Below, one piece after another: positions 2,460-30,975 of a DNA stretch of 32,000 bases. The notes under the pieces are model-generated. The model searched no databases, was not told the DNA's origin, and saw only the letters and a list, made by a program, of their open reading frames with translations. The stretch covers positions 108,332 to 140,331 of the forward strand of contig CACYHE010000001.1 in assembly GCA_902774185.1 (NCBI GenBank), given 5' to 3'. Positions within the stretch are counted from its first letter, which is position 1. Each line of letters starts with the position of its first letter. A program made the translations under genes and the position numbers. The DNA is from an uncultured Bacteroidales bacterium (lineage in GTDB: Bacteria; Bacteroidota; Bacteroidia; Bacteroidales; Paludibacteraceae).

Positions 2460-3536
2460 TTAGTCTCTCATTAAATCTTCTATAATGCGGTTGAGCAGAT
2501 GGATCCCTTGCTGCGTAGCGATGACGCGGTTGTTCTTTATTTGCAACAAACCGGCTTCCAATAGGTCGTCGATGTCCCCGTCTATATCTTCCCTTGCCAC
2601 ACCTTGGCATGTTCGTAAACCCAACATTATGTGTTCGTTATAGCGGTCGGTTTCGGTGAGGGTCTCTTGTTCCCGAATGAGTGTCCCGTCTTCGATGCCG
2701 CGTATGTAAGCATCCAAGTCATCGGGGTTCCAACTGCGTACATTCCTTATATAACTATGCGCGCCTGCGCCCACGCCTACGTAGGGGGTGTTGTTCCAAT
2801 AACTGCCGTTATGCTGCGAGGCGTATCCGGGTAAGGCGAAGTTACTCACCTCATAATGGACGAATCCCGCCTGCTGTAAGCGCTCACACAGATAGTCGTA
2901 CATCGCATTCTCCGTGTCCTCGTCGATCGCCTTAATTCGTTCATTCATTAATTCATTATACAAGGCCGTACCGGGTTCGTACATCAAGCCGTAACACGAT
3001 ATATGTCGGATGCCGAGTGTCAATGCGGTCTCGATGTCCGCTTTCCATTGGTCCATCGTCTGCGTAGGCAAGGCGTATATCAGGTCGATGGATATATTGT
3101 CCAAGCCTGCTTCCTGTGCCATATGTACGGCATCGATGGCTTGCTGTGCATTATGTCTTCGTCCAATCAGTGTCAGCAAGTCATCTTGGAAGGACTGTAC
3201 GCCCATTGAGAGACGGTTGACACCCAAAGCACGCAAACCCTGCAGGTATTCCTTCGTGACATCGCCCGGGTTGACCTCCACCGTATATTCCGCTACCTGA
3301 TCCCTATTCAGCACGTGGTTAATACGGGTCATCGCTTCCAAGGACAAGGTGCTTGGCGTTCCGCCGCCTATATAGATCGTGCGGATCGGTTCGCCTGCTT
3401 CGTCCTGCCGTGCTTTTATCTCTTGGACCAATGCCGATACATACGCGTCCTGCCGCTCCAACCGGGTGGTGGAGAAGAAATCGCAATACAAGCAGCGCTT
3501 CTTGCAGAACGGAATATGTATATACAGACCGGACAA
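2460..3536 (-). CDS. hemW: Radical SAM heme chaperone HemW (HemN-like, coproporphyrinogen III oxidase family)
   Basis: The N-terminus MSGLYIHIPFCKKRCLYCDF carries the CxxxCxxC radical SAM motif, and a HemN_C-like tail follows. The start codon at 3534-3536 is TTG, the first start after an in-frame TAA. Confidence 0.9.
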   Translation of the reverse strand: MSGLYIHIPFCKKRCLYCDFFSTTRLERQDAYVSALVQEIKARQDEAGEPIRTIYIGGGTPSTLSLEAMTRINHVLNRDQVAEYTVEVNPGDVTKEYLQGLRALGVNRLSMGVQSFQDDLLTLIGRRHNAQQAIDAVHMAQEAGLDNISIDLIYALPTQTMDQWKADIETALTLGIRHISCYGLMYEPGTALYNELMNERIKAIDEDTENAMYDYLCERLQQAGFVHYEVSNFALPGYASQHNGSYWNNTPYVGVGAGAHSYIRNVRSWNPDDLDAYIRGIEDGTLIREQETLTETDRYNEHIMLGLRTCQGVAREDIDGDIDDLLEAGLLQIKNNRVIATQQGIHLLNRIIEDLMRD

Positions 3537-3570
3537 TTTATGATTTATGATTTATGATTTATGATTTGTG
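3536..3570. repeat. Heptamer array atttatg x5 (sense cataaat)
   Basis: atttatg x4 followed by atttgtg. It fills the hemW-rarA junction and contains the rarA TAA stop (3559-3561) and its last 3 codons. It abuts the hemW TTG start. Confidence 0.95.
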
Positions 3571-4782
3571 CCAAAACTCTGTGCCGACGAGTTCATCGGG
3601 TAAGTACTGCTGCGCTACCCAATGGTTCGGGTAATCATGCGGGTACAAGTACCCGTCGGCGTACCCGAGATCTTTCATCAAACTCGTCGGAGCGTTACGC
3701 AGGTGTAAGGGAACGGGTAGGTTACCCGTCTCACGCACTTTAGCCAAGGCATCGTCGATGGCCAAATAAGCGGAGTTATCTTTCTTGCAGGTAGCCAGAT
3801 AGATGGTTGTCTCTGCCAAGGGGATACGTCCTTCGGGCCAACCGATCTTATTCACCACATCGAAGCAAGTGTTGGCGAGTAACATCGCATTGGGGTTCGC
3901 CAAACCGATATCTTCGCTTGCCAGAATGACGAGTCGCCGTGCAATGAACTTCGGATCCTCCCCGCCTTCTATCATGCGTGCCAACCAGTAGATGGCAGCT
4001 TGCGGATCGCTACCCCGAACGGACTTGATGAAGGCAGAGATGATGTCGTAGTGCATCTCGCCGTCCTTGTCGTACGCGACGGGGTTCTGTTGTAACTGTT
4101 TGGTGACCGTCTCATTATCAATGATTTTCGCACCGCTGTTACTTACCAGTTCGATGATATTGAGTAGCTTGCGTGCGTCACCTCCACTATACCGCAAGAG
4201 TGCCTCGGTTTGTTTGACTTCGATATGAAGCGAACGGATGATCTCATCTTTGGTGAAGACGCGGTTGAGCAGTTCCATCAGGTCCTCTTTGTCGAGCGAC
4301 TTGAGGACATAGACCTGACACCGGCTGAGGAGCGGGGTGATCACTTCGAAAGACGGGTTCTCGGTCGTGGCACCGATAAGGGTGATCGTTCCTTCTTCCA
4401 CCGCACCCAAGAGGCTGTCCTGTTGGGATTTGGAGAAACGGTGGATCTCATCGATGAAGAGGATGGGGGAACGACTGTCCGCAGGCGCAAAGAGACCGCT
4501 GTTGATGGACGCAGTGCGTTTGGCTTTGTCAATGACGTCCCGTACTTCCTTCACGCCGCTCGTGACCGCACTGAGGGTGTAGAAAGGTCGTTGCAGTTGG
4601 TGCGCGATGATACGGGCAAGGGTTGTCTTACCTACACCCGGAGGTCCCCATAAGATGAAACTGGCGATATTTCCGCTCTCTATCATCTGACGAAGGATGG
4701 CTCCTTGTCCCACCAAATGGCGTTGACCTATGTATTCGTCCAGCGTCTTCGGACGCATGCGTTCTGCTAATGGCAAACTCAT
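3559..4782 (-). CDS. rarA: Replication-associated recombination protein A (AAA+ ATPase RarA/MgsA)
   Basis: Walker [10 protein letters not shown], Walker [11 protein letters not shown] and an MgsA_C-like C-terminal domain. ATG at 4780-4782. Confidence 0.93.
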
Positions 4783-4815
4783 TTATGATGTACGATTTAC
4801 GATGTACGATTTAAT
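4781..4815. repeat. Heptamer array with a 14-bp super-unit (atttacg atgtacg)
   Basis: atttatg atgtacg atttacg atgtacg atttaat. It contains the rarA ATG (4780-4782), the recN TAA (4797-4799) and the recN C-terminal residues LNRTS. Confidence 0.95.
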
Positions 4816-6379: not shown

Positions 6380-6409
6380 CTTTCAACTTTCAACTTTAAA
6401 CTTTCAACT
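6380..6409. repeat. Heptamer array ctttcaa x4 (sense ttgaaag), recN leader
   Basis: ctttcaa ctttcaa ctttaaa ctttcaa ct. Positions 6379-6409 are identical (31 nt) to 9024-9054 inside aroE. Confidence 0.95.
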
Positions 6410-6436: not shown

Positions 6437-7343
6437 CATACGTTGCCTGCCGGGTGGCATCGATATCCATCAGCAGGTCATACACTGTTTTCTTCTCTTT
6501 GTCCGTTCCTTTGCTGAAGATATCCACCAACTCATCGGCTTTGGCGTCCAGGAAAGTGTTGATGACGTAGGTAGCGGGACGGGAACGATAGGCCTCTTTG
6601 AGCACCGGAATGCCTTCGGCGATACGTGCTCTGCCGTTGGTGGCATTGGCACTCATCTCGTCCAAACCCAAACGGTGGTACTCGTAATAGAAATTGCGGT
6701 ATTTCTTGAAAGACTCATCCAAGAGGTTATTAATCAGCGCGTAACGGTTTCGGTTACTGTTAAACGCCGTCCATCCTTTCTGTTCCTTATCGTCCATGCT
6801 CACACCTTGGCAGAGGGTGACGATCTGTTCGCATTGCTGGAAGAACGGGGTGCCGCCTAAACGCTGAAAACTATCGCAGTCATGCCCGATGATGAGATAA
6901 CAGTAGTACGCCAACATCGCCGTGAGGTTGGTAGAGAATGTGTTCTGCTGCCACTCGATGCGGTCAAACTCCTCGTACGTGAAATTGAAGTTTTCATCCC
7001 GGAAGTTGAGGAGCGGGGTGGTGTAGGTCGTGCCAAAGACGGGACGACGGCTCTGTAGTGTCATCTCGCAAAGGTACAGGTTGTCCTGCACGGCTTTTAC
7101 AACAAGTAACATGCTGCACTCGATTTTCTCATGCTCCGCAAAGGTCATGTTGGTCCATCGGTTCTGGTTCATGTACTCTTCGATGGCGGTCTTGAGGGTG
7201 GCAAAGGCCTGTTTGTTCGAACCCTCTATCTGATCCGAGTTCACCGTGACCGTGCATTTGAGTTCCTGGGCATGAAGGGGAGCACAGAACACAGAACACA
7301 GAACACAGACCGATAATGCTATGTATCTAAATTTTAAAATCAT
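6417..7343 (-). CDS. DUF4835 family protein (PorD-like), secreted
   Basis: Signal peptide MILKFRYIALSVCVLCSVFCAPLHA/QE followed by a VTVNSDQIEGSNKQAF...NQNRWT block typical of DUF4835. Its position next to recN is the usual Bacteroidota synteny. The family name is from memory. Confidence 0.8.
   Translation of the reverse strand: MILKFRYIALSVCVLCSVFCAPLHAQELKCTVTVNSDQIEGSNKQAFATLKTAIEEYMNQNRWTNMTFAEHEKIECSMLLVVKAVQDNLYLCEMTLQSRRPVFGTTYTTPLLNFRDENFNFTYEEFDRIEWQQNTFSTNLTAMLAYYCYLIIGHDCDSFQRLGGTPFFQQCEQIVTLCQGVSMDDKEQKGWTAFNSNRNRYALINNLLDESFKKYRNFYYEYHRLGLDEMSANATNGRARIAEGIPVLKEAYRSRPATYVINTFLDAKADELVDIFSKGTDKEKKTVYDLLMDIDATRQATYDRINGN
7283..7310. repeat. Heptamer array cacagaa x4 (sense ttctgtg)
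   Basis: cacagaa x3 followed by cacagac. It encodes VCVLCSVFC, the h-region of the DUF4835 signal peptide. Confidence 0.95.
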
Positions 7344-7366
7344 AAATCTAAAATCTCAAATATCAA
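7325..7366. repeat. Degenerate heptamer array atctaaa-type x6
   Basis: atctaaa ttttaaa atcataa atctaaa atctcaa atatcaa. It spans the DUF4835 start (7341-7343) and the junction to the DUF4831 stop. Confidence 0.8.
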
Positions 7367-8453: not shown

Positions 8454-9170
8454 TCAATTATTCCAAATCTTCCAAGCTTCTTTGGCTTGACCTGTTAACA
8501 TCTCTATTCCGTTCTGCGTTCGGACACCTTGTGCTTTGCCTTTACGCAAGAAGAGGGTCTCTTCGGGGTTGTAGATACAATCGTACAACAAATGTTGTGC
8601 CGAAAGGTGTTCGTAGGGTATCGGCGGACAAGTATCGATATCCGGATACATGCCTAATGGCGTACAGTTGACGATGACCGTATGGCGGTTCATGATGTCG
8701 GAATCCAAATCGTCGTACGTCAAGGTTCCTTCTGCAGCATGCCTACTGACAAGGGTAGGGACGATCCCTAACAGCCGTAACGCATAGCACACGGCTTTGG
8801 CGGCACCGCCAGTACCTAACACCAAGGCCTGTCGGTCTTGTTTGTGCAACAATGGTCTTATCGATTCCATGAATCCGATATAGTCGGTGTTGTAACCGGT
8901 TCGTTGATACACCACGTTTACGGCGCCTATCGCTTGTGCCGTCGGGTCGATACGATTCAGGTACGGGATAATCGCCTGTTTATACGGATACGTCACATTA
9001 AACCCGTCCAAATCGGACAAAAGTCTTTCAACTTTCAACTTTAAACTTTCAACTCTCGTTGGGTACAACGAGTACTCCGCCTCTATGCCTTCTGTCGCAA
9101 ATTTCTGATTGAAGAACTGCGCAGAGAACGAGTGTTCCAATGGAAATCCTATGATACCGAAGTGACGCAT
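8454..9170 (-). CDS. aroE: Shikimate dehydrogenase
   Basis: MRHFGIIGFPLEHSFS, GFNVTYPYK, GAVN and the NADP-binding GTGGAAKAV motif. It contains a translated heptamer array at 9025-9054 (RVESLKLKVER). Confidence 0.9.
   Translation of the reverse strand: MRHFGIIGFPLEHSFSAQFFNQKFATEGIEAEYSLYPTRVESLKLKVERLLSDLDGFNVTYPYKQAIIPYLNRIDPTAQAIGAVNVVYQRTGYNTDYIGFMESIRPLLHKQDRQALVLGTGGAAKAVCYALRLLGIVPTLVSRHAAEGTLTYDDLDSDIMNRHTVIVNCTPLGMYPDIDTCPPIPYEHLSAQHLLYDCIYNPEETLFLRKGKAQGVRTQNGIEMLTGQAKEAWKIWNN
9025..9054. repeat. Heptamer array ctttcaa x4, translated inside aroE
   Basis: ctttcaa ctttcaa ctttaaa ctttcaa ct. It is read in frame as RVESLKLKVER. Confidence 0.95.
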
Positions 9171-11719: not shown

Positions 11720-11749
11720 CTTTCAACTTTAAACTTTCAACTTTCAACT
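11720..11749. repeat. Heptamer array ctttcaa x4 (sense ttgaaag), ettA leader and folA 3' end
   Basis: ctttcaa ctttaaa ctttcaa ctttcaa ct. The flanks catttc...ctg are identical to those of array 6380-6409. Confidence 0.95.
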
Positions 11750-12234
11750 GCTTTCACGTATTCAGCAAACGTGAAAGCATAGGGGTTATTTTCGTCTGCA
11801 GAGTGCCGTTCTGCACTGAGTTGTTTCCAAATAGCCGGGTCTATCTCCGGAAAGAAGGTATCGGCGTCCGGCCAGGAATGATGAATATGGGTGATATAGA
11901 GTTTATCCGCAAACTCCATCGCCTGGCGATACACCATGCCGCCTCCAATGACAAAGGCTTCCTCTTCACCATTGATACATTTCACCATTTCATCAATACT
12001 ATATACCGTCTCGGCCCCTTCGAAGGTCTTACCCTTCACGTCCGTCAACACGATATTACGACGGTTGGGTAGGGGATGTTTGGGTAAGGACAGGAACGTC
12101 CGTTCCCCCATCATGACGGTGTGACCGCTTGTGATGGTTTTGAAATGCTTCAAGTCCGCCGGCATGTGACACAACAGGTCACCTTTCTTGCCGATGGCAT
12201 AATTCTCAGCTATTGCTACAATAATACTTATCAT
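11737..12234 (-). CDS. folA: Dihydrofolate reductase
   Basis: MISIIVAIAENYAIG..., MGERTF, a VIGGG-like motif, and 165 aa. Its TGA stop at 11737-11739 lies inside heptamer array 11720-11749. Confidence 0.9.
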   Translation of the reverse strand: MISIIVAIAENYAIGKKGDLLCHMPADLKHFKTITSGHTVMMGERTFLSLPKHPLPNRRNIVLTDVKGKTFEGAETVYSIDEMVKCINGEEEAFVIGGGMVYRQAMEFADKLYITHIHHSWPDADTFFPEIDPAIWKQLSAERHSADENNPYAFTFAEYVKAVES

Positions 12235-12281
12235 GTTTTACTTTTCAATTTGGGTGTTTTAAGAAAAAAACCTAAATGACA

Positions 12282-12402
12282 CTTTTGAATGATTAAGCGT
12301 TTCACGCTTCCCGTGCTTTGCAGCTAAAAAATCCTTGTAAATAAATTTCCAGATATTTTTTATCACCAAATCACGCCTCTATCGAGTTCAATCATTCAAA
12401 AG
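12282..12402. repeat. 121-bp element bounded by a perfect 13-bp inverted repeat (MITE-like, E1)
   Basis: cttttgaatgatt (12282-12294) and aatcattcaaaag (12390-12402) are exact reverse complements. By eye, the interior resembles the reverse complement of element 13169-13291. Confidence 0.5.
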
Positions 12403-12422
12403 ACATATACATAAAAAACAAT

Positions 12423-12689
12423 TTATTTCTTTTTACGTTGAATAAAATAAATTATGGTTGAAATGATAGCAACCGGAGCACCTACAAATATGCCTATGAA
12501 TCCACACGTACATGCGAAATAGACACAGCCACGTATCCATTTCGGGGCAAATCCCAAAGCATCTGAGGAATCATACCCAAGCACGACGCTAGCATAGGTT
12601 CCTATTCCTACGTATAGTAGAATACAAATAACAGTAACTACCCAAGAGGTAATCAATACTCGTTTTGCTATTTGTAGAGACTCGCTCAT
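12423..12689 (-). CDS. Small hypothetical membrane protein (88 aa, 2-3 predicted TM helices, KKK tail)
   Basis: The ORF has hydrophobic segments VLITSWVVTVICILLYVGIG and GFIGIFVGAPVAIISTIIYF. It sits 7 nt downstream of the GxxExxY gene, is visibly AT-rich, and has no family I recognise. Confidence 0.55.
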   Translation of the reverse strand: MSESLQIAKRVLITSWVVTVICILLYVGIGTYASVVLGYDSSDALGFAPKWIRGCVYFACTCGFIGIFVGAPVAIISTIIYFIQRKKK

Positions 12690-12696
12690 AATTGCA

Positions 12697-13140
12697 TCAA
12701 AACATATACATTACGCCATCCTTGGTATCCAAGTAGTAGTGTTCCGCTTGGTCCATGGGAGGGGCAAAGTTCCACAAAATACCGATCTGCTTGCCGGTCA
12801 GGCGCATGTAGTTCCACAGTTGCTGACGATGCTCCGCTACCAGTTTGTCCACCGCCTTGCACTCTATAATGACCTCATCATTAATCAGGAAATCTACGAA
12901 GTGCTTATGCTGTATGGGCTTGCCGTGAAAGACTACCGAGAAGTAGTACTCACGCTGGTAAGGTATCTGTTGCTCGTCCAGTAGAATCTGCAATGCTTCC
13001 TGATACATATACTCATTCAAGAAAGGTCCAAGCTCGCGGTGTACAGCAGCGCACGCACCATTGATGGCGTAGCATTTAGCCTTTAGTTGCTCGCACAACT
13101 CCGGGTGCTTGTCTATCAATCTTTTCAGCGTATATTGCAT
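12697..13140 (-). CDS. GxxExxY family protein (TIGR04256-like, PD-(D/E)XK nuclease-like fold)
   Basis: 147 aa. The HRELGPFLNEYMYQEAL segment followed by ...DFLINDEVIIECKAV... matches my memory of the multi-copy Bacteroidota GxxExxY family. Confidence 0.75.
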   Translation of the reverse strand: MQYTLKRLIDKHPELCEQLKAKCYAINGACAAVHRELGPFLNEYMYQEALQILLDEQQIPYQREYYFSVVFHGKPIQHKHFVDFLINDEVIIECKAVDKLVAEHRQQLWNYMRLTGKQIGILWNFAPPMDQAEHYYLDTKDGVMYMF

Positions 13141-13168
13141 AATCGAAAAATGTTTTTTGTGTTTATGT

Positions 13169-13291
13169 CTGATTATTGATTTTTAATTCGAAGAATTTGG
13201 AAGATTATTTTGATAAAATGATTTGCAAATTTATTTGTGAAAGCAGTTTAGCAAAATAAGATTCGTATTGTCAAATAAAATCAATAATCAG
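13169..13291. repeat. 123-bp element bounded by a perfect 15-bp inverted repeat (MITE-like, E2); carries the likely GxxExxY promoter
   Basis: ctgattattgatttt (13169-13183) and aaaatcaataatcag (13277-13291) are exact reverse complements. The interior holds a minus-strand TTTG-N18-TAAATTTG. Confidence 0.5.
13226..13255 (-). promoter_or_regulatory. Probable promoter of the GxxExxY / small-membrane-protein pair
   Basis: The minus strand reads TTTG (13252-13255), N18, TAAATTTG (13226-13233), about 85 nt upstream of the ATG at 13140. Confidence 0.4.
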
Positions 13292-13353
13292 GGTTTTGTA
13301 TGTTTTTTTCTTAAATTATCAATCAGTGTTTTATATGTTTTTTTCCTTCAAAT
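13281..13353. repeat. Tandem imperfect duplication of about 37 bp just downstream of the thyA stop
   Basis: tcaataatcagggttttgtatgtttttttcttaaatt versus tcaatcagtgttttatatgtttttttccttcaaat. The first copy includes the right inverted-repeat arm of element 13169-13291. Confidence 0.7.
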
Positions 13354-13354
13354 T

Positions 13355-14149
13355 TTAAACGCTTACAACGCCCGCTATATGAGGGTGCGGGTCGTACCCT
13401 TCTAAAGTAAAGTCTTCGTATTGGAACCCGAATAAGTCTTGCACTTCGGGGTTAATAATCATCTTCGGTAACGCTCTGGGTTCACGTGTCAGCTGCAACT
13501 TGACTTGCTCCAAATGGTTGAGGTAGATATGTGCGTCACCAAGCGTGTGTACGAAATCGCCGCATTGGAGACCCGTCACCTGCGCCATCATCTGCAGGAG
13601 TAGGGCATAAGAGGCGATATTAAACGGTACGCCCAAGAAGATATCGGCACTGCGCTGATAGAGTTGCAAACTCAACTTACCGTCCGCCACATAGAACTGA
13701 AACAGACAGTGACACGGTGGCAACGCCATCTTCTCCACCTCGGCTACATTCCAGGCACTAACCAGCAGGCGTCGGCTGTCGGGGTTTTCCTTAATCGTCT
13801 TCACGATATTGGCTATCTGATCGATGGTACCTCCGTTATAGTCCGGCCAAGAGCGCCATTGATGACCATAGACAGGACCAAGTTCACCGTTCTCGTCTGC
13901 CCATTCGTTCCAGATACGGACACCGTGGTCCTGCAGGTACTTGACGTTCGTGTCGCCGTTCAGGAACCACAATAACTCATAGATGATGGACTTGAGGTGC
14001 AGTTTTTTGGTGGTCAAGAGCGGAAAACCGTCTTCCATCTTAAACCGCATTTGATGACCGAACACGGATATCGTTCCCGTTCCTGTCCGGTCTTGTTTGA
14101 CGGTGCCTTCCTCCAGCACCCGCCTGCATAAGTCTAAATACTGTTTCAT
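13355..14149 (-). CDS. thyA: Thymidylate synthase
   Basis: MKQYLDL..., RTGTGT, active-site LPPCH, and 264 aa. Confidence 0.95.
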
Positions 14150-14203: not shown

Positions 14204-16294
14204 CTAGTATAGTTTATACGTTGTTTTGAGTACCTTGAACTCGGTACGACGGTTGATCTGGTTGCAGATCTCTTGTTTGTCAATCGGCAGACTGTTGATG
14301 AACGTCTCGTCCAGCACTTGCTCAACCGGTATCCACGGATATTGCTTGTTAAGCGCCTTGTCTGCCACCACCGGTTTGGTTTTACCGTATCCTACCGGCG
14401 TCAGACGTTCTTTCTCAATACCGTGTTGGATGAGGTAGTCACAGCAACTCTGTGCACGTTTCTGACTTAACTCGTTGTTGAACTCGTCCGTACCCTTCAA
14501 GTCCGTATGGGCACTGAGCTCAATGGTGATATTGGGGTTGTCGTTAAGCAGTTTAACCAATTTCTCCATCTCTTTCTCCGAGGCCTGCGTCAACTCCCAT
14601 CGACCGAACTCATAGAACACATTCTCCATCGTGACGGGTCGGCTAATCGGTTGCAGCACAAAGTCCATCGTGTAGGTCTTGCTGTCCTTCAAACCGAAGG
14701 TGTTCCATTGCTCTTTGGCGTTCAGATAACCTCTGGCGGTGACTAACATGACGTACTTGACGTCTTGTTGCAGTTTGATCTTGTACTTACCGTCCCGACG
14801 GGCGTTGAGTTTACTGTTCGTGCCGTCGGATCCCACAATACGCAACATGGCGTCGGCGATAGGATTGCCCAAACCGTCGTTCACCGTCCCTTGTGCTATG
14901 AACTCCATCTCAGGCAAGGTAAACTGGTAGATCTTATCCATCCCTTTCTTATCGCCTCGGTTGGAGGAGAAGAAACCGTTCTGACTGTTTCCGGCAAAAG
15001 TGATACCGAAGTCATCGCCGGCTCCGTTGAAGGGCGCCCCCATGTTAAACAGGATCCACACGACGCTGTCTTTGTAGGTCGTGTCACGTGTGGCTTTGAA
15101 GATATCCAGACCTCCGTAACCCGGATGACCGTTCGAGGCAAAATAGAGCGTACCGTCAGCGTGTACATAAGGGAACATCTCATCGGCACTCGTGTTGATT
15201 CCGGCTTCCAAAGGATGCGCGTTCACCCATTGGTTTTCTGCCAACTCCGCCATCCAGATATCTTTTCCTCCTTGACCGCCCGGTGCATCACTGGCGAAAT
15301 AGAGCGTGTCACCCATCGGACTGAGCGCAGGATGACCCACCGTGATCGTACTGTCGGTAAATAGTTTGACTTCCTGTGCTTCGCCCCATTCACCGCTTGC
15401 CCGTTCACTACAGTAGATCTTAGCACCCAGATCCTGACCGTTGATAGGCTTGGAGTAAGTGAAATACATCATCCTGCCGTCCTTGGTAAAGCAGCACGCA
15501 CCCATCTCTGCGTTCGCTCCGCCTTTACCACTGGTCGAGTCATTCTGTTGTTCCTCTTCCTCTTGATCCCCGTACAAACCCTCTGCCGGTTCTATCTCTT
15601 CCCATTCTCCGGCTGCGTTCTTGCGTGTCTGGTAGAGTTGGAAAAGCTGTTGACCCGTCACGTTACTGGCGCGTTTGAGTTTTTTCGTTCCCTTCTCTTT
15701 GGACTCCTGCCGGTTTGATGTGAACATGAGTGCGTCGTTTTGATCACCGATGAACATCGGGGCGAAGTTACTGCTGCGTTTCTTGTTAAACATCTTCGCT
15801 TCGCTTACCTTGTACCGGCTGGTCTCTTTCTTCCACTCGTCCATCTTCGTGCAAGCGTACTTGCCGGCCTGCGCTACATAGTCATCGGGATGGGCTTCCA
15901 GATAGGAATCGTAGTGCTTGATGGCATCTTTGTATTTACCTTGGTTCTGCAGCACTTGTGCGGCATGCAGGTAAATCGTCGAGTCCTGTAACTGGTACTT
16001 ACAACGCAATGCACTCTGGTAAGCATTAGCAGCACGGGGATTATTGATATAGCGGTAACACTCCGCCTGACGGTAAGCGACGTAGCCCTTCAAGTCCCGT
16101 TGCTTCTGCGTACTGAGCCGACTATAACAGGACTTGTAGATCTCTCCGGCCGCATAGTACTCCCCGATGGCGTATTTCTTATCCGCCCGCTTGATACGTT
16201 GCTGGATAGAGCACCCGCTCAGAAGAATTGAAAATTGAAAAATGAAAATTGAAAGGAGAAAACCTTTCACCTTTGACCTATCACTTTTCAACAT
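14204..16294 (-). CDS. OmpA-family lipoprotein with TPR, TolB-like beta-propeller, CarboxypepD_reg-like and OmpA C-terminal domains
   Basis: Lipobox LLSGC, TPR-like AECYRYINNPRAANAYQSAL, WD40-like repeats (YFASD/YFASN), and a C-terminal OmpA motif (LSAHTDLKGTDEFNNELSQKRAQS). I chose the ATG at 16292-16294 (MLKSDRSKVKGFLL...). The track start at 16315 is a GTG inside a repeat. Confidence 0.88.
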   Translation of the reverse strand: MLKSDRSKVKGFLLSIFIFQFSILLSGCSIQQRIKRADKKYAIGEYYAAGEIYKSCYSRLSTQKQRDLKGYVAYRQAECYRYINNPRAANAYQSALRCKYQLQDSTIYLHAAQVLQNQGKYKDAIKHYDSYLEAHPDDYVAQAGKYACTKMDEWKKETSRYKVSEAKMFNKKRSSNFAPMFIGDQNDALMFTSNRQESKEKGTKKLKRASNVTGQQLFQLYQTRKNAAGEWEEIEPAEGLYGDQEEEEQQNDSTSGKGGANAEMGACCFTKDGRMMYFTYSKPINGQDLGAKIYCSERASGEWGEAQEVKLFTDSTITVGHPALSPMGDTLYFASDAPGGQGGKDIWMAELAENQWVNAHPLEAGINTSADEMFPYVHADGTLYFASNGHPGYGGLDIFKATRDTTYKDSVVWILFNMGAPFNGAGDDFGITFAGNSQNGFFSSNRGDKKGMDKIYQFTLPEMEFIAQGTVNDGLGNPIADAMLRIVGSDGTNSKLNARRDGKYKIKLQQDVKYVMLVTARGYLNAKEQWNTFGLKDSKTYTMDFVLQPISRPVTMENVFYEFGRWELTQASEKEMEKLVKLLNDNPNITIELSAHTDLKGTDEFNNELSQKRAQSCCDYLIQHGIEKERLTPVGYGKTKPVVADKALNKQYPWIPVEQVLDETFINSLPIDKQEICNQINRRTEFKVLKTTYKLY
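16228..16255. repeat. Heptamer array ttgaaaa x4 (sense ttttcaa)
   Basis: ttgaaaa ttgaaaa atgaaaa ttgaaag. It encodes LSIFIFQFS of the OmpA-family lipoprotein signal peptide. Confidence 0.95.
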
Positions 16295-16328
16295 ATATTT
16301 CCTTTCACTTTTCACCTTTCACCTTTCA
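16263..16328. repeat. Heptamer array cctttca, 4 + 4 units split by a 10-nt spacer (sense tgaaagg)
   Basis: cctttca cctttga cctatca cttttca / acatatattt / cctttca cttttca cctttca cctttca. The spacer carries the ATG at 16292-16294. The last unit carries the DUF1015 TGA stop (16326-16328). Confidence 0.95.
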
Positions 16329-17615
16329 ATTTAGCTCGTGGATTACCAATCCCGAGCGTAACTTGGGTTCAAACCATGTGGTCTTGGGCGGCATGATATT
16401 GCCGCTATCGGCGATGTCGATGATCTGCTGCATGGTAACGGGGTAGAGCGCCAAAGCCACTTTCATCTCTCCGCTATCCACTCTCTGCTTCAACTCGCCC
16501 AGACCACGGATACCGCCTACGAAGTCGATTCGTTTGTCCGTACGCAGATCTTTGATGCCAAGGATCTTATCCAGAATAAGATTACTCGATATCGTAACAT
16601 CCAGCACACCTATCGGGTCCGCATCATTATAGCGTCCCTCCTTAGCGGTCAACGAGTACCACTTCCCGCCCAGATACAGGCTGAAGTTGTGCAGCGCTTT
16701 GGGTTTTACATCATTAAGCACGGAGGATTGCCTGTGGCCATCCGAATCGAGCAAGTCACCATTATAACATTCAACAATGAAGTCCTTATTAAGGGCTTCG
16801 AGGAACTCCTCCTCGCTAAGTCCGTTCAGGTCTTTTACCACACGGTTATAATCGATGATATTGAGTTGATTATCCGGGAAACAAACGGCTAAGAAATACT
16901 CGTACTCAGGAACCTTAATTTTTAATTTTTCATTTTTAATTTTTAATTCCTGTCCTACGCCAGCCGCCGCAGCTGAACGATGGTGTCCGTCAGCGATGTA
17001 CATCGCCGGAATCTCCGCAAAGATCTCGGTGATACGATCAATCGTCTTTTTGTCCTCAATGATCCAGAACGTGTGACGGAATCCTTCCGGAGCGGCTACG
17101 AAGTCATACTCCGGTGTGCCCTTGGTTACTTCTGCAACGATAGCATCAAGGTCGTCCCGGTGAGGGTAGGCGAAGAATACCGGTTCCATGTTCGCGTTCA
17201 GCGTACGTACATGTTTCATGCGGTCTTCCTCTTTGTCCTTACGCGTCAACTCATGTTTCTTAATGCGTCCCTCCAGATAGTCATCTACCCAAGCGCCGAC
17301 AACCAAACCATACTGCGTCTTGCCAAAACCCGTTTGCGCGTAAACGTAGTATTTCTCCTCTTGGTCTTGTTCCAACCAACCTTTGACACGAAAACGCTTG
17401 TATTGTGACAACGCCTCCTGATACACACGAGGGTCATGCTCATCGGTACCGGGTTCAAAATTGATCTCCGGCTTGATGATATGATACAGACTCATCTCGT
17501 TGCCTTCCGCTTCCTGACGTGCCTCCTCGGAGTTCAATACGTCATACGGCCGACTACTCACTTTGGTCACCAACTCTTTCGGTGGCCGTATTCCCTTAAA
17601 TGGTTTTATCTTCAT
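16326..17615 (-). CDS. DUF1015 family protein
   Basis: MKIKPFKGIRP..., the ADGHHR motif, and 429 aa. It contains a translated heptamer array at 16915-16949 (ELKIKNEKLKIK). Confidence 0.88.
   Translation of the reverse strand: MKIKPFKGIRPPKELVTKVSSRPYDVLNSEEARQEAEGNEMSLYHIIKPEINFEPGTDEHDPRVYQEALSQYKRFRVKGWLEQDQEEKYYVYAQTGFGKTQYGLVVGAWVDDYLEGRIKKHELTRKDKEEDRMKHVRTLNANMEPVFFAYPHRDDLDAIVAEVTKGTPEYDFVAAPEGFRHTFWIIEDKKTIDRITEIFAEIPAMYIADGHHRSAAAAGVGQELKIKNEKLKIKVPEYEYFLAVCFPDNQLNIIDYNRVVKDLNGLSEEEFLEALNKDFIVECYNGDLLDSDGHRQSSVLNDVKPKALHNFSLYLGGKWYSLTAKEGRYNDADPIGVLDVTISSNLILDKILGIKDLRTDKRIDFVGGIRGLGELKQRVDSGEMKVALALYPVTMQQIIDIADSGNIMPPKTTWFEPKLRSGLVIHELN
16915..16949. repeat. Heptamer array ttaattt x5, translated inside the DUF1015 gene
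   Basis: ttaattt ttaattt ttcattt ttaattt ttaattc. The sense strand reads ELKIKNEKLKIK. Confidence 0.95.
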
Positions 17616-17620
17616 CGTTT

Positions 17621-17686
17621 GATTTACGATTTTATGATTTACGATTTTACGATTTATTAGACGATTTCGATAAATTTAACGATTTG
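17621..17686. repeat. gatttac/gattttac array (alternating 7/8 bp, 15-bp super-unit) grading into degenerate copies
   Basis: gatttac gattttat gatttac gattttac gatttattagac gatttc gataaatttaac gatttg. It lies directly upstream of the DUF1015 ATG. Confidence 0.9.
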
Positions 17687-17709
17687 TAGAAGACAATGGT
17701 CCAATTCTG

Positions 17710-17766
17710 TCAATTGATCAATTGATCAATCAATCGTCCAATCGTCAATCGTCCAATCGTCAATTA
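17710..17766. repeat. tcaattga x2 followed by a caatcgtc/caatcgt array (7/8 alternation, 15-bp super-unit x2)
   Basis: tcaattga tcaattga tcaat caatcgtc caatcgt caatcgtc caatcgt caatta. It ends at the bactofilin TAA (17764-17766). Confidence 0.9.
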
Positions 17767-18126
17767 TTTCGTCGGCGCAGCCTTTGGCTGACCCATAGCG
17801 CATGTTCCGTTGAACTGTGCACCCGGTTCTACGATCAAAGTCTTTGTCTGTACATCGCCTTGGATCTTACCGCTTGCACGCAGACTCAGCTGTTGACTGC
17901 AGTTGATCTTGCCGTCCAGAAGACCCATGATCTCGGCGTTCTGACAGTTAACCGTACCTTTGATACGACCCGATTCGCCGATTACTACTTTACCCGAACA
18001 ATTTAATTCACCTTCGATCAAACCATCGATACGGTAATCGCTATCCGCCGTGATGGTTCCTACGATTTTACTTCCTGCGGTCAGCGCATTGAACATCAAA
18101 CCGCTTTGTTGTCTCTCATTTGCCAT
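17764..18126 (-). CDS. Bactofilin (polymer-forming cytoskeletal protein, DUF583)
   Basis: Repetitive beta-helix pattern: IVGTITADSDYRIDGLIEGELNCSGKVVIGESGRIKGTV... Start chosen at MANERQQ (ATG 18124-18126). Confidence 0.85.
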   Translation of the reverse strand: MANERQQSGLMFNALTAGSKIVGTITADSDYRIDGLIEGELNCSGKVVIGESGRIKGTVNCQNAEIMGLLDGKINCSQQLSLRASGKIQGDVQTKTLIVEPGAQFNGTCAMGQPKAAPTK

Positions 18127-18140
18127 AATATAATTATTTA

Positions 18141-18161
18141 TCAATTGTCAATTATCAATTA
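18141..18161. repeat. Heptamer array tcaattg/tcaatta x3
   Basis: tcaattg tcaatta tcaatta. It lies at the bactofilin-esterase junction and contains the esterase TGA stop (18155-18157). Confidence 0.85.
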
Positions 18162-18901
18162 TTGAAAAGTTTCGGCAAGAAACGTTTCAAATACTCTTGC
18201 CAATTCGGCCATACATGACCGTCCGTACTCTCGTAATACGTGTACTCCACATGCTCTTTTTCAAGCCATTTGCGGTACTCCTGAAAACTATCCCACAGAA
18301 AATCCTCCGTACCGATACCCAACCAGAACACTTTCGCGTCTTTCGGAGCATTATGAACGAACGTAGCCGGCGAGAACATTCCTACATACGCAAATTGTCC
18401 TTCCAACACATAGGACACCCGCATCGTGTGGTAACCACCCATTGAGAGACCGGCGATCGCGCGTTGCTCGGGATCCGTGCAGATACGGTATTTCGACTCT
18501 GTCTCCTTCATGAAAGCACCGAAGTTCGCTTCCCATTGACCGTTGGACGCGTTCTCTCTCTCTTCCTCCGAAGTAGGCCTGCTCGGACAGTTATCCGGCA
18601 TCACGACAACCATCTCACGTATCTCGCCTGCGCGTAGAAGGGAGTCCATAATAGGCACTAATCGACCCTGTGTGGTCCAGTCGAACTCATTTCCCCACAT
18701 CCCGTGTTGCAGATAGAGCACCGGAAAGACCTCCGTACGTGCTGCGTACTGATCCGGCAGATAGACACAGCAGGGCACGCCGTTCAAGGTGTCTTGTACC
18801 ACCGTACCGGCCTGTAACGGCCTGTCTTCCACCTGTTTCGCACATGCTATACTCATGCACGCGATACCTATCAGATAGGCACTAAAAATCCATTTCTTCA
18901 T
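18155..18901 (-). CDS. Esterase family alpha/beta hydrolase, lipoprotein or secreted
   Basis: Signal peptide MKKWIFSAYLIGIACMSIAC, the GLSMGG nucleophile elbow, and a PF00756-like layout. Start at ATG 18899-18901. The upstream track extension reads through the promoter. Confidence 0.85.
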   Translation of the reverse strand: MKKWIFSAYLIGIACMSIACAKQVEDRPLQAGTVVQDTLNGVPCCVYLPDQYAARTEVFPVLYLQHGMWGNEFDWTTQGRLVPIMDSLLRAGEIREMVVVMPDNCPSRPTSEEERENASNGQWEANFGAFMKETESKYRICTDPEQRAIAGLSMGGYHTMRVSYVLEGQFAYVGMFSPATFVHNAPKDAKVFWLGIGTEDFLWDSFQEYRKWLEKEHVEYTYYESTDGHVWPNWQEYLKRFLPKLFNN

Positions 18902-18954: not shown

Positions 18955-19110
18955 CACGCGCGTACTTTTTTATGATTTTTATTACTTTTTCCTTCTTCCA
19001 AATTCGCATAGTTCAAAATTATTTGTTCCTTAATATCCTATGTATCGAACTCAACCATCGATACCTGTGTAATCCATGTAAAATAAAGGCTTGCCACGTA
19101 TGCGTATTGG

Positions 19111-19150
19111 GTGATTATAGGGAGATTATTGCGTGATTATTGCGTGATTC
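19111..19150. repeat. 11-bp period tandem repeat gtgattattgc x3.6
   Basis: gtgattatagg gagattattgc gtgattattgc gtgattc. It lies in the spacer between the FGE stop and the esterase promoter. Confidence 0.85.
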
Positions 19151-20738: not shown

Positions 20739-21425
20739 ATGAAAAATAATGTTTTTGCGGGCGCGTTGGTAGCGCTGGGTTTATGTCTTGGAGGTTTGTT
20801 CATTAACCTCGGTATTAATAAGTTTGCCTCGAAAGATCGGGCGGTGACGGTGAAGGGTCTGAGTACCCGTGAAGTGGAAGCGGACTATGCCGTTTGGCCT
20901 TTGTCGTTTGCATGGAGCGGAAATGATCTGCCGGCACTCTATACGAAGTTGGAACAAGTGACCGAGCGGGTGAAGAACCATCTGCAGTCCCTGGGCTTTG
21001 AGGAAGCCGATATCCGGCAGGGTAGTGTGTCGGTTAGCAATAACTGGGACGGATACTACGGTAATCGTCCGGAATTCAAATATACGCTGAGTACGTCGCT
21101 TATCGTTTCGACCGATAAAGTGGCGTTGGTTGTGGCGAGTCAAGGAAAGGAATCCGCTTTGCTCAAAGAGGGAATCATCGTGACTACAGAGAAATGGAAT
21201 CTGGATTACCAGTTCAACGGTCTGCCTGAGTTGAAGCCGTCGATGATCGAAGAGGCAACGCGTAATGCCCGTGCGGTCGCACAGAAATTTGCGGACGATG
21301 CCCAATGTAACTTGGGTTCGATCCGTCAAGCCAGCCAAGGACAGTTCTCCATCGAGTCCGACCAGTACCAGCCTTGGCGCAAACATGTACGCGTCGTGAC
21401 GACCGTTGATTATTATCTCAATTAA
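20739..21425 (+). CDS. SIMPL domain-containing protein (DUF541)
   Basis: MKNNVFAGALVALGLCLGGLFINLG (TM anchor) followed by DRAVTVKGLSTREVEADYAVWPL, typical of Bacteroidales SIMPL proteins. ATG at 20739, 19 nt after a TAATTTTG -7 box. Confidence 0.85.
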   Translation: MKNNVFAGALVALGLCLGGLFINLGINKFASKDRAVTVKGLSTREVEADYAVWPLSFAWSGNDLPALYTKLEQVTERVKNHLQSLGFEEADIRQGSVSVSNNWDGYYGNRPEFKYTLSTSLIVSTDKVALVVASQGKESALLKEGIIVTTEKWNLDYQFNGLPELKPSMIEEATRNARAVAQKFADDAQCNLGSIRQASQGQFSIESDQYQPWRKHVRVVTTVDYYLN

Positions 21426-21454
21426 GAATTAAGAATTACGAATTAAGAATCAAA
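21420..21454. repeat. Heptamer array aattaag x5, gyrA leader
   Basis: aattaag aattaag aattacg aattaag aatcaaa. It contains the SIMPL TAA stop (21423-21425) and ends 11 nt before the gyrA ATG. Confidence 0.95.
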
Positions 21455-25383: not shown

Positions 25384-25805
25384 TGGGTCGCATTCTCGCA
25401 ATAGATTACGGTCGTAAACGCACAGGATTAGCCGTTACGGATATTCTCCGCATAACGGCTAATCCGTTGCTTACGATTGAGACGAAGGATTTGATAAACT
25501 GGTTGACGGGCTACTTCGCTAAAGAAGCTGTTGACGAAGTGGTTATCGGTCATCCGACCCAGATGAACGGTACAGAATCGGAGTCGATGAATTATATCCG
25601 ACCGTTCATGGGCGTATTTAAAAAGACGTTTCCAGACAAACCTATAACTATGTATGACGAGCGCTTCACGTCGGTATTGGCGCACAGGGCAATGATTGAC
25701 GGGGGAATGAAGAAAAAAGACCGACAGGACAAAGCGGTAGTGGATAAGATCGCCGCATGTATCATCCTCGAGGGTTACCTCGAGAAGTTGAAAGTTGAGA
25801 GTTGA
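25383..25805 (+). CDS. ruvX: Holliday junction resolvase-like protein RuvX (YqgF)
   Basis: MGRILAIDYGRKRTGLAV and DERFTS motifs. TAATG overlap with the upstream gene. Its TGA stop at 25803-25805 lies inside array 25788-25815. Confidence 0.9.
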   Translation: MGRILAIDYGRKRTGLAVTDILRITANPLLTIETKDLINWLTGYFAKEAVDEVVIGHPTQMNGTESESMNYIRPFMGVFKKTFPDKPITMYDERFTSVLAHRAMIDGGMKKKDRQDKAVVDKIAACIILEGYLEKLKVES

Positions 25806-25815
25806 AAGTTGAAAG
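25788..25815. repeat. Heptamer array ttgaaag x4 on the plus (sense) strand
   Basis: ttgaaag ttgagag ttgaaag ttgaaag. It encodes the ruvX C-terminus KLKVES plus its TGA stop. This is the same unit family as 6380, 9025 and 11720, again in sense orientation. Confidence 0.95.
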
Positions 25816-27531: not shown

Positions 27532-28748
27532 TTACGATAGGAGATGAACTGCTGATCGGTCAGGTGGTGGACACCAACTCCGCTTGGATGGCCCAGCGAT
27601 TGAATGAGCAAGGTATTGAACTATACCGGATTACGTCCGTTCATGACGATAAGGCACAGATCATAGATGCCTTAGATGCTGCATTTAACGAAGTGGATAT
27701 CGTGTTGACGACCGGCGGTTTGGGTCCGACCAAAGATGATATCACCAAGCAGGTGTTATGCGATTATTTCCATACGCACCTTATAGAAGATACGCGTGTG
27801 CGTACGCATATAGAGGAACTCTATCGTGATCGTCCGGACGTGTTGAACCGACTGACCGCTACGCAATGGCAAGTGCCTGCTTGTGCCGAGATTCTGGAGA
27901 ATCGGGTAGGGTCCGCTCCGCTGATGGTTTTTAAGAAGGATGACAAGCTGCTTATCACTATGCCCGGTGTGCCTTACGAGATGAAGATCGCGATGGAGGA
28001 ACAAATTCTGCCGTTTATAGAGTCGAAAGTCGAAAGTCAAAAGTCGAAAGCCATTATCCATAAGACGCTGCAGGTGACGGGTATCGCAGAGAGTTCGTTG
28101 GCGATCTTACTGGAGGACTTTGAGAACCGAATGCCTTCGTCCTTGCACTTGGCGTATTTACCCAAAGACGGGGTGATCCGTTTGCGTTTGTCGAGTTACG
28201 GCGATATGACAGAAGAAGAGGTGACACGTTGGTTTGATGAGTTGAAACAGTTGACGGCTGATTATCTGATCGCCGATACCGATGAACCGCTTGAAGTGAT
28301 TGTAGGCAATGTGTTAAAAGCCAAAGGCATGACCATCTCCACTGCCGAGAGTTGTACAGGCGGTAAACTGGCTTCATTACTCAATAAGCATGCCGGTTCG
28401 TCTGCTTTCTATTGGGGTTCGGTCATCAGTTATGACAACTCCGTCAAGGTGCAGGTCTTAGGCGTTCCGGCAGAACTGATAGAAAAGTACGGCGTAGTAA
28501 GCGAAGAGGTGGTACGTGTGATGGCACAGTCTGTTCGCAAACTAACCAATACTACTTGTAGTATTGCTACATCCGGTATCGCAGGACCATCCGGTGGTTC
28601 GAAAACCAAGCCGGTTGGTACCGTTTGGATGGCTTGGGACACGCCTAAAGGGACGTTTGCGGAGTGTTTTCATTTAGGCAAACTGCGTGAACAGGTAACC
28701 GACAGAGCATGCCAGAAAGCATTGATAGGATTATTAAAACATATTTAA
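27516..28748 (+). CDS. cinA: CinA family protein (competence/damage-inducible; NMN deamidase-type C-terminal domain)
   Basis: MRAEIITIGDELLIGQVVDTNS (MoCF_biosynth domain) and a C-terminal ESCTGG CinA domain. An alternative ATG at 27504 would add MEKT. It contains a translated array at 28021-28048 (ESKVESQKSK). Confidence 0.9.
   Translation: MRAEIITIGDELLIGQVVDTNSAWMAQRLNEQGIELYRITSVHDDKAQIIDALDAAFNEVDIVLTTGGLGPTKDDITKQVLCDYFHTHLIEDTRVRTHIEELYRDRPDVLNRLTATQWQVPACAEILENRVGSAPLMVFKKDDKLLITMPGVPYEMKIAMEEQILPFIESKVESQKSKAIIHKTLQVTGIAESSLAILLEDFENRMPSSLHLAYLPKDGVIRLRLSSYGDMTEEEVTRWFDELKQLTADYLIADTDEPLEVIVGNVLKAKGMTISTAESCTGGKLASLLNKHAGSSAFYWGSVISYDNSVKVQVLGVPAELIEKYGVVSEEVVRVMAQSVRKLTNTTCSIATSGIAGPSGGSKTKPVGTVWMAWDTPKGTFAECFHLGKLREQVTDRACQKALIGLLKHI
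28021..28048. repeat. Heptamer array agtcgaa x4, translated inside cinA
   Basis: agtcgaa agtcgaa agtcaaa agtcgaa. It reads ESKVESQKSK. The unit differs by one base from gttgaaa (TGA becomes CGA). Confidence 0.95.
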
Positions 28749-30925: not shown

Positions 30926-30943
30926 AATGTTACAAAATTTGTG

Positions 30944-30975
30944 CAAAATTAGTGAAAAATTTCTTATTTTACAAA
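30944..30975 (-). promoter_or_regulatory. Probable promoter of the O-methyltransferase gene
   Basis: The minus strand reads TTTG (30972-30975), N20, TAATTTTG (30944-30951), 18 nt upstream of the ATG at 30925. Confidence 0.5.

Follow-up and report, generated by a model that had tools for sequence, protein, structure and literature searches.

A heptanucleotide repeat array with stop-bearing units apparently read in frame within a conserved DUF1015-family gene of an uncultured Paludibacteraceae bacterium

We analyzed a 32,000-nucleotide stretch of DNA from an uncultured Bacteroidales bacterium of the Paludibacteraceae (GenBank assembly GCA_902774185.1, contig CACYHE010000001.1, positions 108,332 to 140,331), which is referred to as a whole as the window. 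The element of interest lies within a gene for a DUF1015-family protein and consists of five 7-nt units, AATTAAA AATTAAA AATGAAA AATTAAA AATTAAG (35 nt; minus strand, 16948 to 16914), that are apparently translated as part of the protein. The match of this protein to Pfam family PF06245 is full length (residues 3 to 341) and includes the ADGHHR motif, in which A208, G210, H211, and R213 are invariant among 99 sequences and D209 and H212 are at least 90% conserved. The AlphaFold2 model of the protein has a mean predicted local distance difference test score (pLDDT) of 95.9. Residues 223 to 227 of the model close a helix (211 to 227), and residues 228 to 236 connect it to a strand (240 to 247). 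The modeled fold resembles, in a Foldseek search, the free serine kinase SerK and SbnI (ParB/sulfiredoxin-like; E ~1e-7), a resemblance that is informative about the host protein but not about the array. No chain in the PDB was matched in a sequence search with the DUF1015 protein. Rumen and gut genome bins of Paludibacteraceae supply the closest homologues, and among 56 close homologues the protein is nearly invariant outside two segments: loop 1, which follows ADGHHRSAAAAGVG and is the site of the array, and loop 2, which follows EEFLEAL..DF.VE.

The minus-strand context of the array is ...ggcgtagga cag GAA TTA AAA ATT AAA AAT GAA AAA TTA AAA ATT AAG gtt cct..., and the 12 codons at 16949 to 16914 encode ELKIKNEKLKIK, residues E223 to K234 of the 429-aa open reading frame (ORF). 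The segment ADGHHRSAAAAGVGQ immediately precedes the array-encoded peptide. An earlier note on this DNA gave the sequence of the array correctly, but its coordinates (16915-16949) were one base off; that span takes in the G of GAA (16949) and omits the last G (16914). Tandem Repeats Finder (TRF) describes the array with period 7, 4.9 copies, and 92% matches (score, 61). The units stand head to tail and have a length within the range of 5 to 11 nt by which heptanucleotide long simple sequence repeats (LSSRs) are recognized. The 14-mer AATTAAAAATTAAA, with up to two mismatches, has 11 matches in the window versus 0.30 expected, and a strict period-7 detector found nine arrays in the window versus none in 100 second-order Markov simulations.

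Every canonical AATTAAA unit contains TAA, and the reading frame determines where this is a stop. Units 1, 2, and 3 start at codon positions 2, 3, and 1, respectively, and an in-frame TAA is possible only in unit 3 (and in hypothetical units 0 and 6). Unit 3 is AATGAAA, in which the G at 16931 yields GAA (Glu229) in place of the in-frame TAA. Codon arithmetic thus bears out the earlier note's statement that TAA would be in frame in the third unit only. Its further wording, that TAA was converted to GAA, holds for the odd unit at the stop position, but the direction of change is not established. The position of the G may never have been allowed to homogenize with the other units, or the G may have arrived in an already-open copy. 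Translation of the array as 12 residues is presumed from the intact conserved frame.

The codons of the array suggest that the periodicity belongs to the DNA. The array uses minority codons of a genome with ~48% G+C (TTA, 11% of Leu; ATT, 22% of Ile; AAT, 34% of Asn), and, for the given peptide, such a codon choice has a probability of 1.3e-6. Among 10 array-bearing species (45 pairs), 11 array codons were identical in 495 of 495 comparisons, whereas 40 flanking codons with the same residue in both species had the identical codon in only 868 of 1638 (53%). The nucleotide identity of the array is 89 to 100% across species versus 75 to 86% for the gene. These results support the reading that the repeat pattern arises at the DNA level, with the peptide as its by-product, and the tract appears to be a translated copy of a DNA-level repeat rather than an evolved protein motif. 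If synonymous sites stay frozen, something must keep acting on them. Concerted evolution with the many other AATTAAA arrays, limited by selection against stops, is the most economical reading; the tract may also function in DNA or RNA.

Relatives show what the array displaced. Species representatives at 76 to 78% identity have NEKKLQNPNHTGKEEYN or AEKQKATGDKNAEFN as loop 1, which is non-periodic and shows ordinary synonymous variation. The modal connector among 98 DUF1015 representatives of the wider family (36 to 64% identity) is also non-periodic, 17 aa in length, and of the type K(R/K)RExNPxHTGxEEYN; LKIKNEKLKIK was present in 0 of these 98. The earlier note had regarded the same K/E-rich segment, encoded without periodicity in unrelated genera, as the observation that would speak against it, and the 98 representatives have a different connector. 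Loop 1 is 54 nt (18 aa) with the array; a conspecific strain has 45 nt, and more distant relatives have 51 nt (15 to 17 aa in alleles without the array). These lengths indicate that the native connector was replaced and agree with the earlier note that there was no clean in-frame insertion of 35 nt. The array thus appears, from these comparisons, to have overwritten a semi-conserved native connector at nearly equal length.

Loop 1 has also taken up other sequences in the lineage. Different heptamer arrays are found there (AAATCAA x5 in L009, GAATACA in L018, GGTTACG x4 in L028 and L053, and CGATTAG in L029), as are an 8/16-mer (L016), in-frame GC-rich hairpins (CCCCTCC-ataaa-GGAGGGG, read SLPQPLHKGGEIP, in L003, L023, L031, L032, L034, and L043 to L045), and a 30-nt direct duplication (L004, L021, and L047). 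The loop states are mosaic on a backbone tree of 388 loop-free columns. Loop 2, with an ancestral state of 8 aa (E-x-K-G-x-E-I-Y), behaves in the same way, its derived states across species being arrays, hairpins, and composites. Loop 2 of the window exceeds the CYNGDA(S/L)LNDV form of L016, L017, and L024 by 30 nt (10 codons). Loop 1, and likewise loop 2, behaves as a hotspot.

Some of the elements in these loops are composite. An 83-nt composite element occurs in both L042 loops (6675-6760 and 6903-6985), in frame in each, with a related copy in L043 (~1971). It consists of a GC-rich outer hairpin and an inner insert of ~50 nt, and the inner part recurs in a different outer hairpin at another locus. 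The extra DSDGHRQS in loop 2 of the window is similar to the core of this element.

The array is polymorphic among closely related strains. A protein 97% identical to that of the window (P0003) is encoded on syntenic contigs (L081 to L083) that are ~97 to 100% identical to the window per 200-nt block over 13 kb and have the plain loop AEKQKETGNKNAEFN at loop 1. Strain-level alleles, which the earlier note had proposed to look for, were therefore found. The divergent patch that holds the array in the alignment with these contigs reaches past the array, with three synonymous differences in the YFLAVC codons. The 3' flank of the array in the window matches L002 at 58 of 60 positions and L012 at 56 of 60, while the rest of the gene is 77 to 86% identical. 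The patch and the flank match point to short-patch homologous recombination between lineages, by which the array allele probably moved between strains and species. The array allele is on at least 23 contigs (P0001 and P0002), and the only length variant of the array that was seen is a gain of 21 nt, in frame, in another species (P0080).

Other origins of the variation were considered and rejected. No duplicated flanking bases that would mark a target-site duplication surround the array, and the sole flank symmetry, a 6-nt CAGGAA/TTCCTG pairing, is absent as a conserved feature in other species; a remnant of a transposable element of the miniature inverted-repeat type or of another transposon was rejected on both grounds. 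RNA folding of the array region gave no significant structure (z = -1.15; 30 of 200 shuffles fold as well), and a scan of the window with Rfam at the gathering threshold gave no match. A diversity-generating retroelement was rejected because the loop variation is not adenine-specific and no reverse transcriptase was found in Pfam scans of 20 window ORFs or in the gene table of the syntenic strain. Truncated DUF1015 predictions (P0170, P0136, P0239, and P0223) were not accepted as frameshift alleles: some belong to other genera, where the loop is a plain NPNH one, and the rest are chimeric or partial.

The substitution in unit 3 has counterparts in other arrays. Among 46 distinct heptamer arrays within open frames of at least 250 codons, 29 have units that are stop-free in every sense frame. 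The other 17 of 17 use a frame needing the fewest changes (one versus two changes in 7 cases, two versus three in 1, and ties in 9). For five AATTAAA units, two changes would be required in the frame with stops in units 1 and 4 and likewise in that with stops in units 2 and 5, and the unit-3 stop frame is the sole frame that a single change can open. Four sister species (L010, L011, L013, and L015) open unit 3 with AATTCAA or AACTCAA instead, giving TCA (Ser). Two other ORFs (L001, 3218-3246; L035, 11018-11045) have AATTAAA AATTAAA AATGAAG AATTAAA in the same frame, read LKIKNEEL, and intergenic AATTAAA arrays in the same genomes keep TAA. In-gene AGTTGAG/AGTTGAA arrays, including that at 9025-9054 of the window, have TTA or GGA in place of TGA. 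The claim of an odd unit at exactly the stop position is strengthened by the sister species, the two other ORFs, and the intergenic arrays, and stop avoidance appears to be general among heptamer arrays within ORFs.

The arrays form a large population. For a census, 975 kb (the window, 80 related species, and one conspecific strain) was searched with TRF. Period 7 accounted for 221 of 487 tandem arrays, followed by period 11 (81), period 8 (41), and period 14 (32), with at most 23 arrays for any other period, a genome-wide excess of period 7 as is characteristic of LSSRs. There were 68 heptamer unit families, of which AATTAAA was the commonest (31 arrays), and copy number peaked sharply at 4 to 4.5 units (28 to 34 nt). 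Most of the 262 period-7/8 arrays (178) were outside genes (73 from stop to start, 64 just after a stop, 21 just before a start, and 20 elsewhere), usually ending 0 to 10 nt before an ATG; 84 were within genes. Sense strands were A-rich in 69% of arrays (P = 7e-5). In related genomes, AATTAAA arrays were present at over 15 further sites, including two within other ORFs. Array density outside the DUF1015 gene was 0.42 to 0.53 per kb where loop 2 was derived, 0.26 where only loop 1 was derived, and 0.16 where both loops were ancestral (derived versus ancestral, Mann-Whitney P = 4e-6, a statistic that ignores phylogeny). As judged from these sequences, heptamer arrays of ~30 nt are a lineage-wide population, with ~0.5 per kb, mostly at gene junctions and in some cases translated.

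The window itself reflects this pattern (Table 1). Nearly every gene junction is filled by one or two period-7/8 arrays of different units with ~4 to 5 copies, which in many cases run over the stop codon of one gene and finish a few bases short of the next start. The spacer at 17620-17770, upstream of the DUF1015 gene, is wholly replaced by unrelated sequence in the conspecific L081. The array at 9025-9054 has TTA where an in-frame TGA would be. Its 30-mer AGTTGAAAGTTTAAAGTTGAAAGTTGAAAG occurs a second time in the window, at 6380-6409, where it is non-coding and upstream of a RecN-like gene, and a rearranged copy is at 11720-11749. The window and the conspecific strain differ by one 7-nt unit near 18160 and by 14 nt near 21440. 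This slippage-type variation in unit number was seen in these two intergenic arrays, and the coding array has only the 21-nt variant of P0080. A 42-nt TTGAAAG array at 11720-11760 is in the window and not in the conspecific strain. These differences between the two, like the replaced spacer, all fall at repeats.

Table 1. Positions of the DUF1015 gene, its array, and other repeat features of the window
Feature	Position	Strand	Details
DUF1015-family gene, 429 aa	16326..17615	minus	Pfam PF06245, E 5e-108
Five-unit heptamer array	16914..16948	minus	With G16949 encodes ELKIKNEKLKIK; TRF 61; codon probability 1.3e-6
Odd third unit, AATGAAA	16928..16934	minus	Frame arithmetic; G at 16931
Divergent patch, 88 nt, with array and flanking codons	16884..16971	minus	Alignment of window with L081/L082, otherwise ~98% identical
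Second hypervariable segment (loop 2), ECYNGDLLDSDGHRQSSVLNDV	16707..16772	minus	pLDDT 68-79
AATTGAA x4.1 and ACCTTTC x9.1, adjacent	16226..16328		DUF1015 stop to OmpA/TPR start; kept in conspecific strain
Period 7-8 and 15 arrays	17620..17764		Spacer upstream of DUF1015 start
Translated AGTTGAA AGTTTAA AGTTGAA AGTTGAA AG = VESLKLKVE	9025..9054	minus	Shikimate dehydrogenase N-terminal domain
Translated AGTCGAA x4.3 = SKVESQKSK	28021..28050	plus	CinA linker, MoCF to KH domains
Junction arrays	25-134, 3536-3567, 4781-4813, 6380-6409, 7283-7361, 11720-11749		
Junction arrays (continued)	16226-16328, 17620-17764, 18138-18162, 21420-21450, 25785-25815		

Several further observations concern other repeats of the window and its relatives. 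Arrays related to the AGTCGAA array of CinA occupy one site of a 706- to 726-aa protein in L032 and L079. An AATTAAG array supplies, with its first unit, the stop codon of a SIMPL gene (21423-21425). Period-11 arrays are located at 19105-19149 and 30933-30962 and at related loci; TATTGGGTGAT x4.1, between esterase and sulfatase-maturase genes, is an example. The conspecific L081 lacks ~1.1 kb of the window (12259-13458), in which lie a gene of the PD-(D/E)XK nuclease family (PF13366; 12697..13140, minus strand) and a repeat with a 35-nt period (13286-13354).

The same tract occurs outside the lineage. A metagenome scan for AATTAAAAATTAAAAATGAARAATTAAA, a pattern that fixes both the G and the frame, returned at least 120 stretches, and the 28-mer AATTAAAAATTAAAAATGAA(A/G)AATTAAA was in at least 116 distinct contexts on contigs of 18 to 70% G+C. 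Among the matches listed, only two have DUF1015 hosts (L142 and L171), and about two-thirds are inside unrelated ORFs of at least 100 aa, reading (K/E/Q)LKIKNEKLKI. The hosts among the matches listed include AlaRS, topoisomerase I, LepA, RecR, KsgA, TrmD, Fmt, and glutamate dehydrogenase. AATTAAA arrays thus occur, like Rickettsia-type repeats, both between genes and in frame in unrelated conserved proteins. The tract has, among the matches listed, a sharp 5' edge with T depleted at position -1, as expected if one more unit would put TAA in frame, and a 3' edge after AATT. The contigs of the matches listed also have, in 765 kb, 105 more heptamer arrays, which belong to other unit families. On high-G+C contigs the tract is non-coding and sometimes in inverted pairs; in L091 (1516-1592) and L180 (1780-1852), with 63 to 69% G+C, arrays with AATGAAG as unit 3 are inverted 10 to 13 nt apart and could form an A/T hairpin of ~31 bp. 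The glutamate dehydrogenase of L182 (contig, 37% G+C) has three segments derived from AATTAAA arrays, ELKNKNLKLKKNE, KLKIKNEKLKI, and EKLKIKNEKLDI. AlaRS of Sulfurovaceae (Campylobacterota) carries the tract, and its relatives are hypervariable at exactly that beta-hairpin. Following PFYAESGGQxGDxG, they have five-unit arrays of AATTAAA or GAATTAG or longer unrelated inserts (L154, L194, and L392); one relative has GAATTAG GAATTAG GAATGAG GAATTAG GAATTAA, with GAG in place of TAG.

The metagenome scan cannot by itself separate convergence from copying because its pattern fixes the G and the frame. In viral contigs, exact scans found four pure units of AATTAAA in 76 stretches, for the most part from giant-virus bins, and the G form in only 2; the counts indicate that pure AATTAAA is a common simple repeat of AT-rich DNA but leave convergence versus copying unsettled. 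A degenerate viral scan (AATNNAA x4) for an unbiased spectrum of variants was discarded as uninformative on the G variant because it was swamped by AATATAA/poly-A-like giant-virus arrays.

The history that we consider probable is that an AATTAAA array replaced the connector and was tolerated, that stop-bearing versions were purged, and that the resulting allele spread by recombination. The source would be the pool of ~30-nt arrays of four to five heptamer units in this rumen lineage, with approximately one per 2 kb and most abutting stop or start codons. One array of the commonest unit type would have taken the place of the native connector of 15 to 17 aa between helix 211-227 and strand 240-247, arriving in the gene by templated copying from another array copy, through ectopic conversion or template switching. 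It would persist because the segment tolerates change and selection removes versions with in-frame stops. The same copying process, together with stop selection, would keep the array nucleotides frozen; the peptide would have no function of its own; and the allele would pass between strains and species by short-patch homologous recombination. Copying is supported by an irregular array of 33 to 37 nt that is identical at two unrelated L035 sites, one of which is DUF1015 loop 2; by the 83-nt composite element, which has 94% identity between the two L042 loops; and by GC-hairpin elements common to loops and intergenic sites. Shared irregular 28-mers with a single variant were dropped as proof of copying because chance alone would give ~0.7 coincident pairs in a family of 12, and the case for copying is drawn only from the multi-variant L035 element and the 83-nt L042 element.

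Several points weigh against this history. No donor copy was found for the array of the window. The array replaces a native segment of similar length and similar hydrophobic pattern in AlaRS, RecR, TrmD, and glutamate dehydrogenase, and such like-for-like replacement is better fit by build-up in place than by simple insertion. AT-rich DNA at large commonly has pure AATTAAA arrays (76 viral contigs), so that independent origins of AATTAAA arrays are plausible. A single odd middle unit is usual in non-coding arrays also, which is in part a detection bias. The association of array density with derived loops (P = 4e-6) is not corrected for phylogeny, and translation of the array is presumed from the intact conserved frame.

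Two alternatives treat the array as functional in itself, and both are highly improbable. If ELKIKNEKLKIK were a selected amphipathic helix-turn-strand element whose nucleotide periodicity was incidental, then the alternation of hydrophobic and charged residues, the confident modeling of the peptide (pLDDT, 88 to 93), and its retention in about half of the 56 close homologues would be expected. However, neither the codon-choice probability of 1.3e-6 nor the zero synonymous differences in 495 codon comparisons fits such an element, a strain with 97% identity lacks the peptide, sister species have unrelated peptides at the site, and 0 of 98 distant homologues have it; the protein-motif reading is largely refuted. 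There is equally little to recommend a contingency locus, in which slippage of a 7-nt repeat would switch the gene on and off by frameshift. The unit length is not a multiple of 3, and intergenic arrays do vary by whole units between conspecific strains (7 nt near 18160 and 14 nt near 21440). In the gene, however, no more than two identical units are contiguous and the third differs, so that the tract is interrupted. No frameshifted allele was present among the array-bearing sequences (intact predicted proteins and assembled contigs), the sole length variant is the in-frame gain of 21 nt in P0080, and the protein is a conserved, cytoplasmic, enzyme-like one in a housekeeping neighborhood.

The other alternatives concern how the array was written. 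One is build-up in place, in which a native K/E/N-rich connector became 7-nt periodic without import: a nascent strand misaligns by 7 nt, copies a few neighboring bases, and realigns, so that bases change and length stays constant. The G would then be the one position where homogenization would give a stop. This alternative, although unlikely, deserves a hearing. It agrees with the near-equal segment lengths (18 versus 17 aa in DUF1015, with near-equal lengths also in AlaRS, RecR, TrmD, and glutamate dehydrogenase of other phyla), with the location of the arrays at sites that are natively K/L/I-rich helix-end, turn, and strand, and with the wide occurrence of AATTAAA arrays in AT-rich DNA. Among long simple repeats, heptamers are the most frequent kind in many bacteria, and polymerase slippage has been proposed as their cause (Mrazek 2007, as cited in PMC4679880). 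Yet the genome here has ~48% G+C and avoids TTA, ATT, and AAT, and the GGTTACG and CGATTAG arrays and complex hairpins at this one site in close relatives are unrelated and cannot all stem from the same native sequence. Moreover, identical irregular arrays and the 83-nt composite recur at unrelated sites, and the conspecific difference is a recombination patch without a gradient of substitutions. Copying plus recombination is therefore favored at the window locus, on the strength of the unrelated arrays and complex elements at the site in relatives and of codon usage that is at odds with a native AT-rich seed. Rather doubtful, in our estimate, is a broader idea, that the ~30-nt arrays are products of an active cross-phylum process that writes short templated tracts onto look-alike sites, coding sequence among them, in one step and with little change of length. 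It would be compatible with the 28-mer in at least 116 contexts, the inverted pairs at high G+C, and the same design of the AATTAAA and GAATTAG arrays in AlaRS. An oligonucleotide derived from single-stranded DNA or reverse transcription, acting at the replication fork, or a dedicated template-switching repair polymerase may be responsible, and the G of unit 3 may then be part of a propagating master sequence and not a local repair.

If copying, tolerance, and stop selection are the correct explanation, then a simple DNA repeat that carries stop codons can occupy part of a conserved protein and be read through, with the geometry of the reading frame setting which single base must differ. The array alleles are polymorphic within a species and appear to be moved by recombination. 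Several sites in many proteins of the lineage are affected likewise, and the identical tract is also in unrelated proteins of other phyla. Heptamer arrays would then be a general, overlooked source of length-neutral hypervariable protein segments in bacteria and would yield misleading 'conserved' low-complexity peptides in protein databases. In the literature searched we came upon no account of conserved enzymes in which one substitution opens a stop-bearing heptamer array, of such loop hotspots, or of an identical tract across phyla, and the DUF1015 array is one case of what is apparently an undescribed larger pattern.

Several known repeat systems resemble the arrays in part. The short tandemly repeated repetitive (STRR) sequences of cyanobacteria are dispersed tandem heptamer arrays with several unit families per genome. 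They are like the present arrays in forming dispersed heptamer families and differ in phylum, unit sequences, and G+C. STRR sequences have been treated as intergenic markers, and to our knowledge translated, stop-avoiding copies are not part of their description. Rickettsia palindromic elements (RPEs) are the classical repeats read in frame in conserved proteins (Ogata et al. 2000, reviewed in PMC10969869). RPEs, as presented in that review, share with the present arrays a dispersed distribution between genes and in frame in unrelated proteins, with a tolerated extra peptide. However, they are palindromic, ~150 bp in length, and true insertions that add residues, whereas the present tract is a tandem array of 35 nt without a significant hairpin (z = -1.15) that replaces native residues (18 versus 15 to 17 aa). 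The tract thus has neither the 100- to 150-bp hairpin nor the residue-adding insertion that define RPEs.

In Beggiatoaceae, cyanobacteria, and some Bacteroidetes, TAACTGA repeats are found immediately upstream of start codons and now and then within ORFs (MacGregor 2015, PMC4679880). Like the present arrays, they comprise two to six heptamer units a few nucleotides before starts or over stops, with occasional ORF copies whose placement is restricted by the stop codons of the unit. Unlike the present arrays, one unit predominates and related heptamers are rarely repeated, and the ORF copies are mostly at protein ends or in hypothetical proteins. That paper has no case of a stop-bearing orientation opened by a substitution in a conserved enzyme (PMC4679880).

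The closest general parallel is with the LSSRs. Among the long simple repeats of many bacteria, those with heptanucleotide units are the most frequent (Mrazek 2007, as cited in PMC4679880 and PMC4692102), and, as summarized in those papers, they share with the present arrays tandem 7-nt units, a genome-wide excess of period 7, a mostly intergenic location, and a sporadic phylogenetic distribution. The present arrays differ from LSSRs so summarized in that 68 unit families are present in 975 kb with no single dominant unit and in that one-third are in open frames, many of them translated inside conserved proteins. GGGAATC repeats of Xanthomonas and Nostoc favor four units, which was attributed to G-quadruplexes (PMC4692102), and the present arrays have a similar preference (peak at 4 to 4.5 units). 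The G-quadruplex account is inapplicable here because the present units are A/T-rich. If our interpretation is correct, these arrays provide a handle on the preference for about four units, and the comparison argues that this preference may be a general property of bacterial heptamer arrays.

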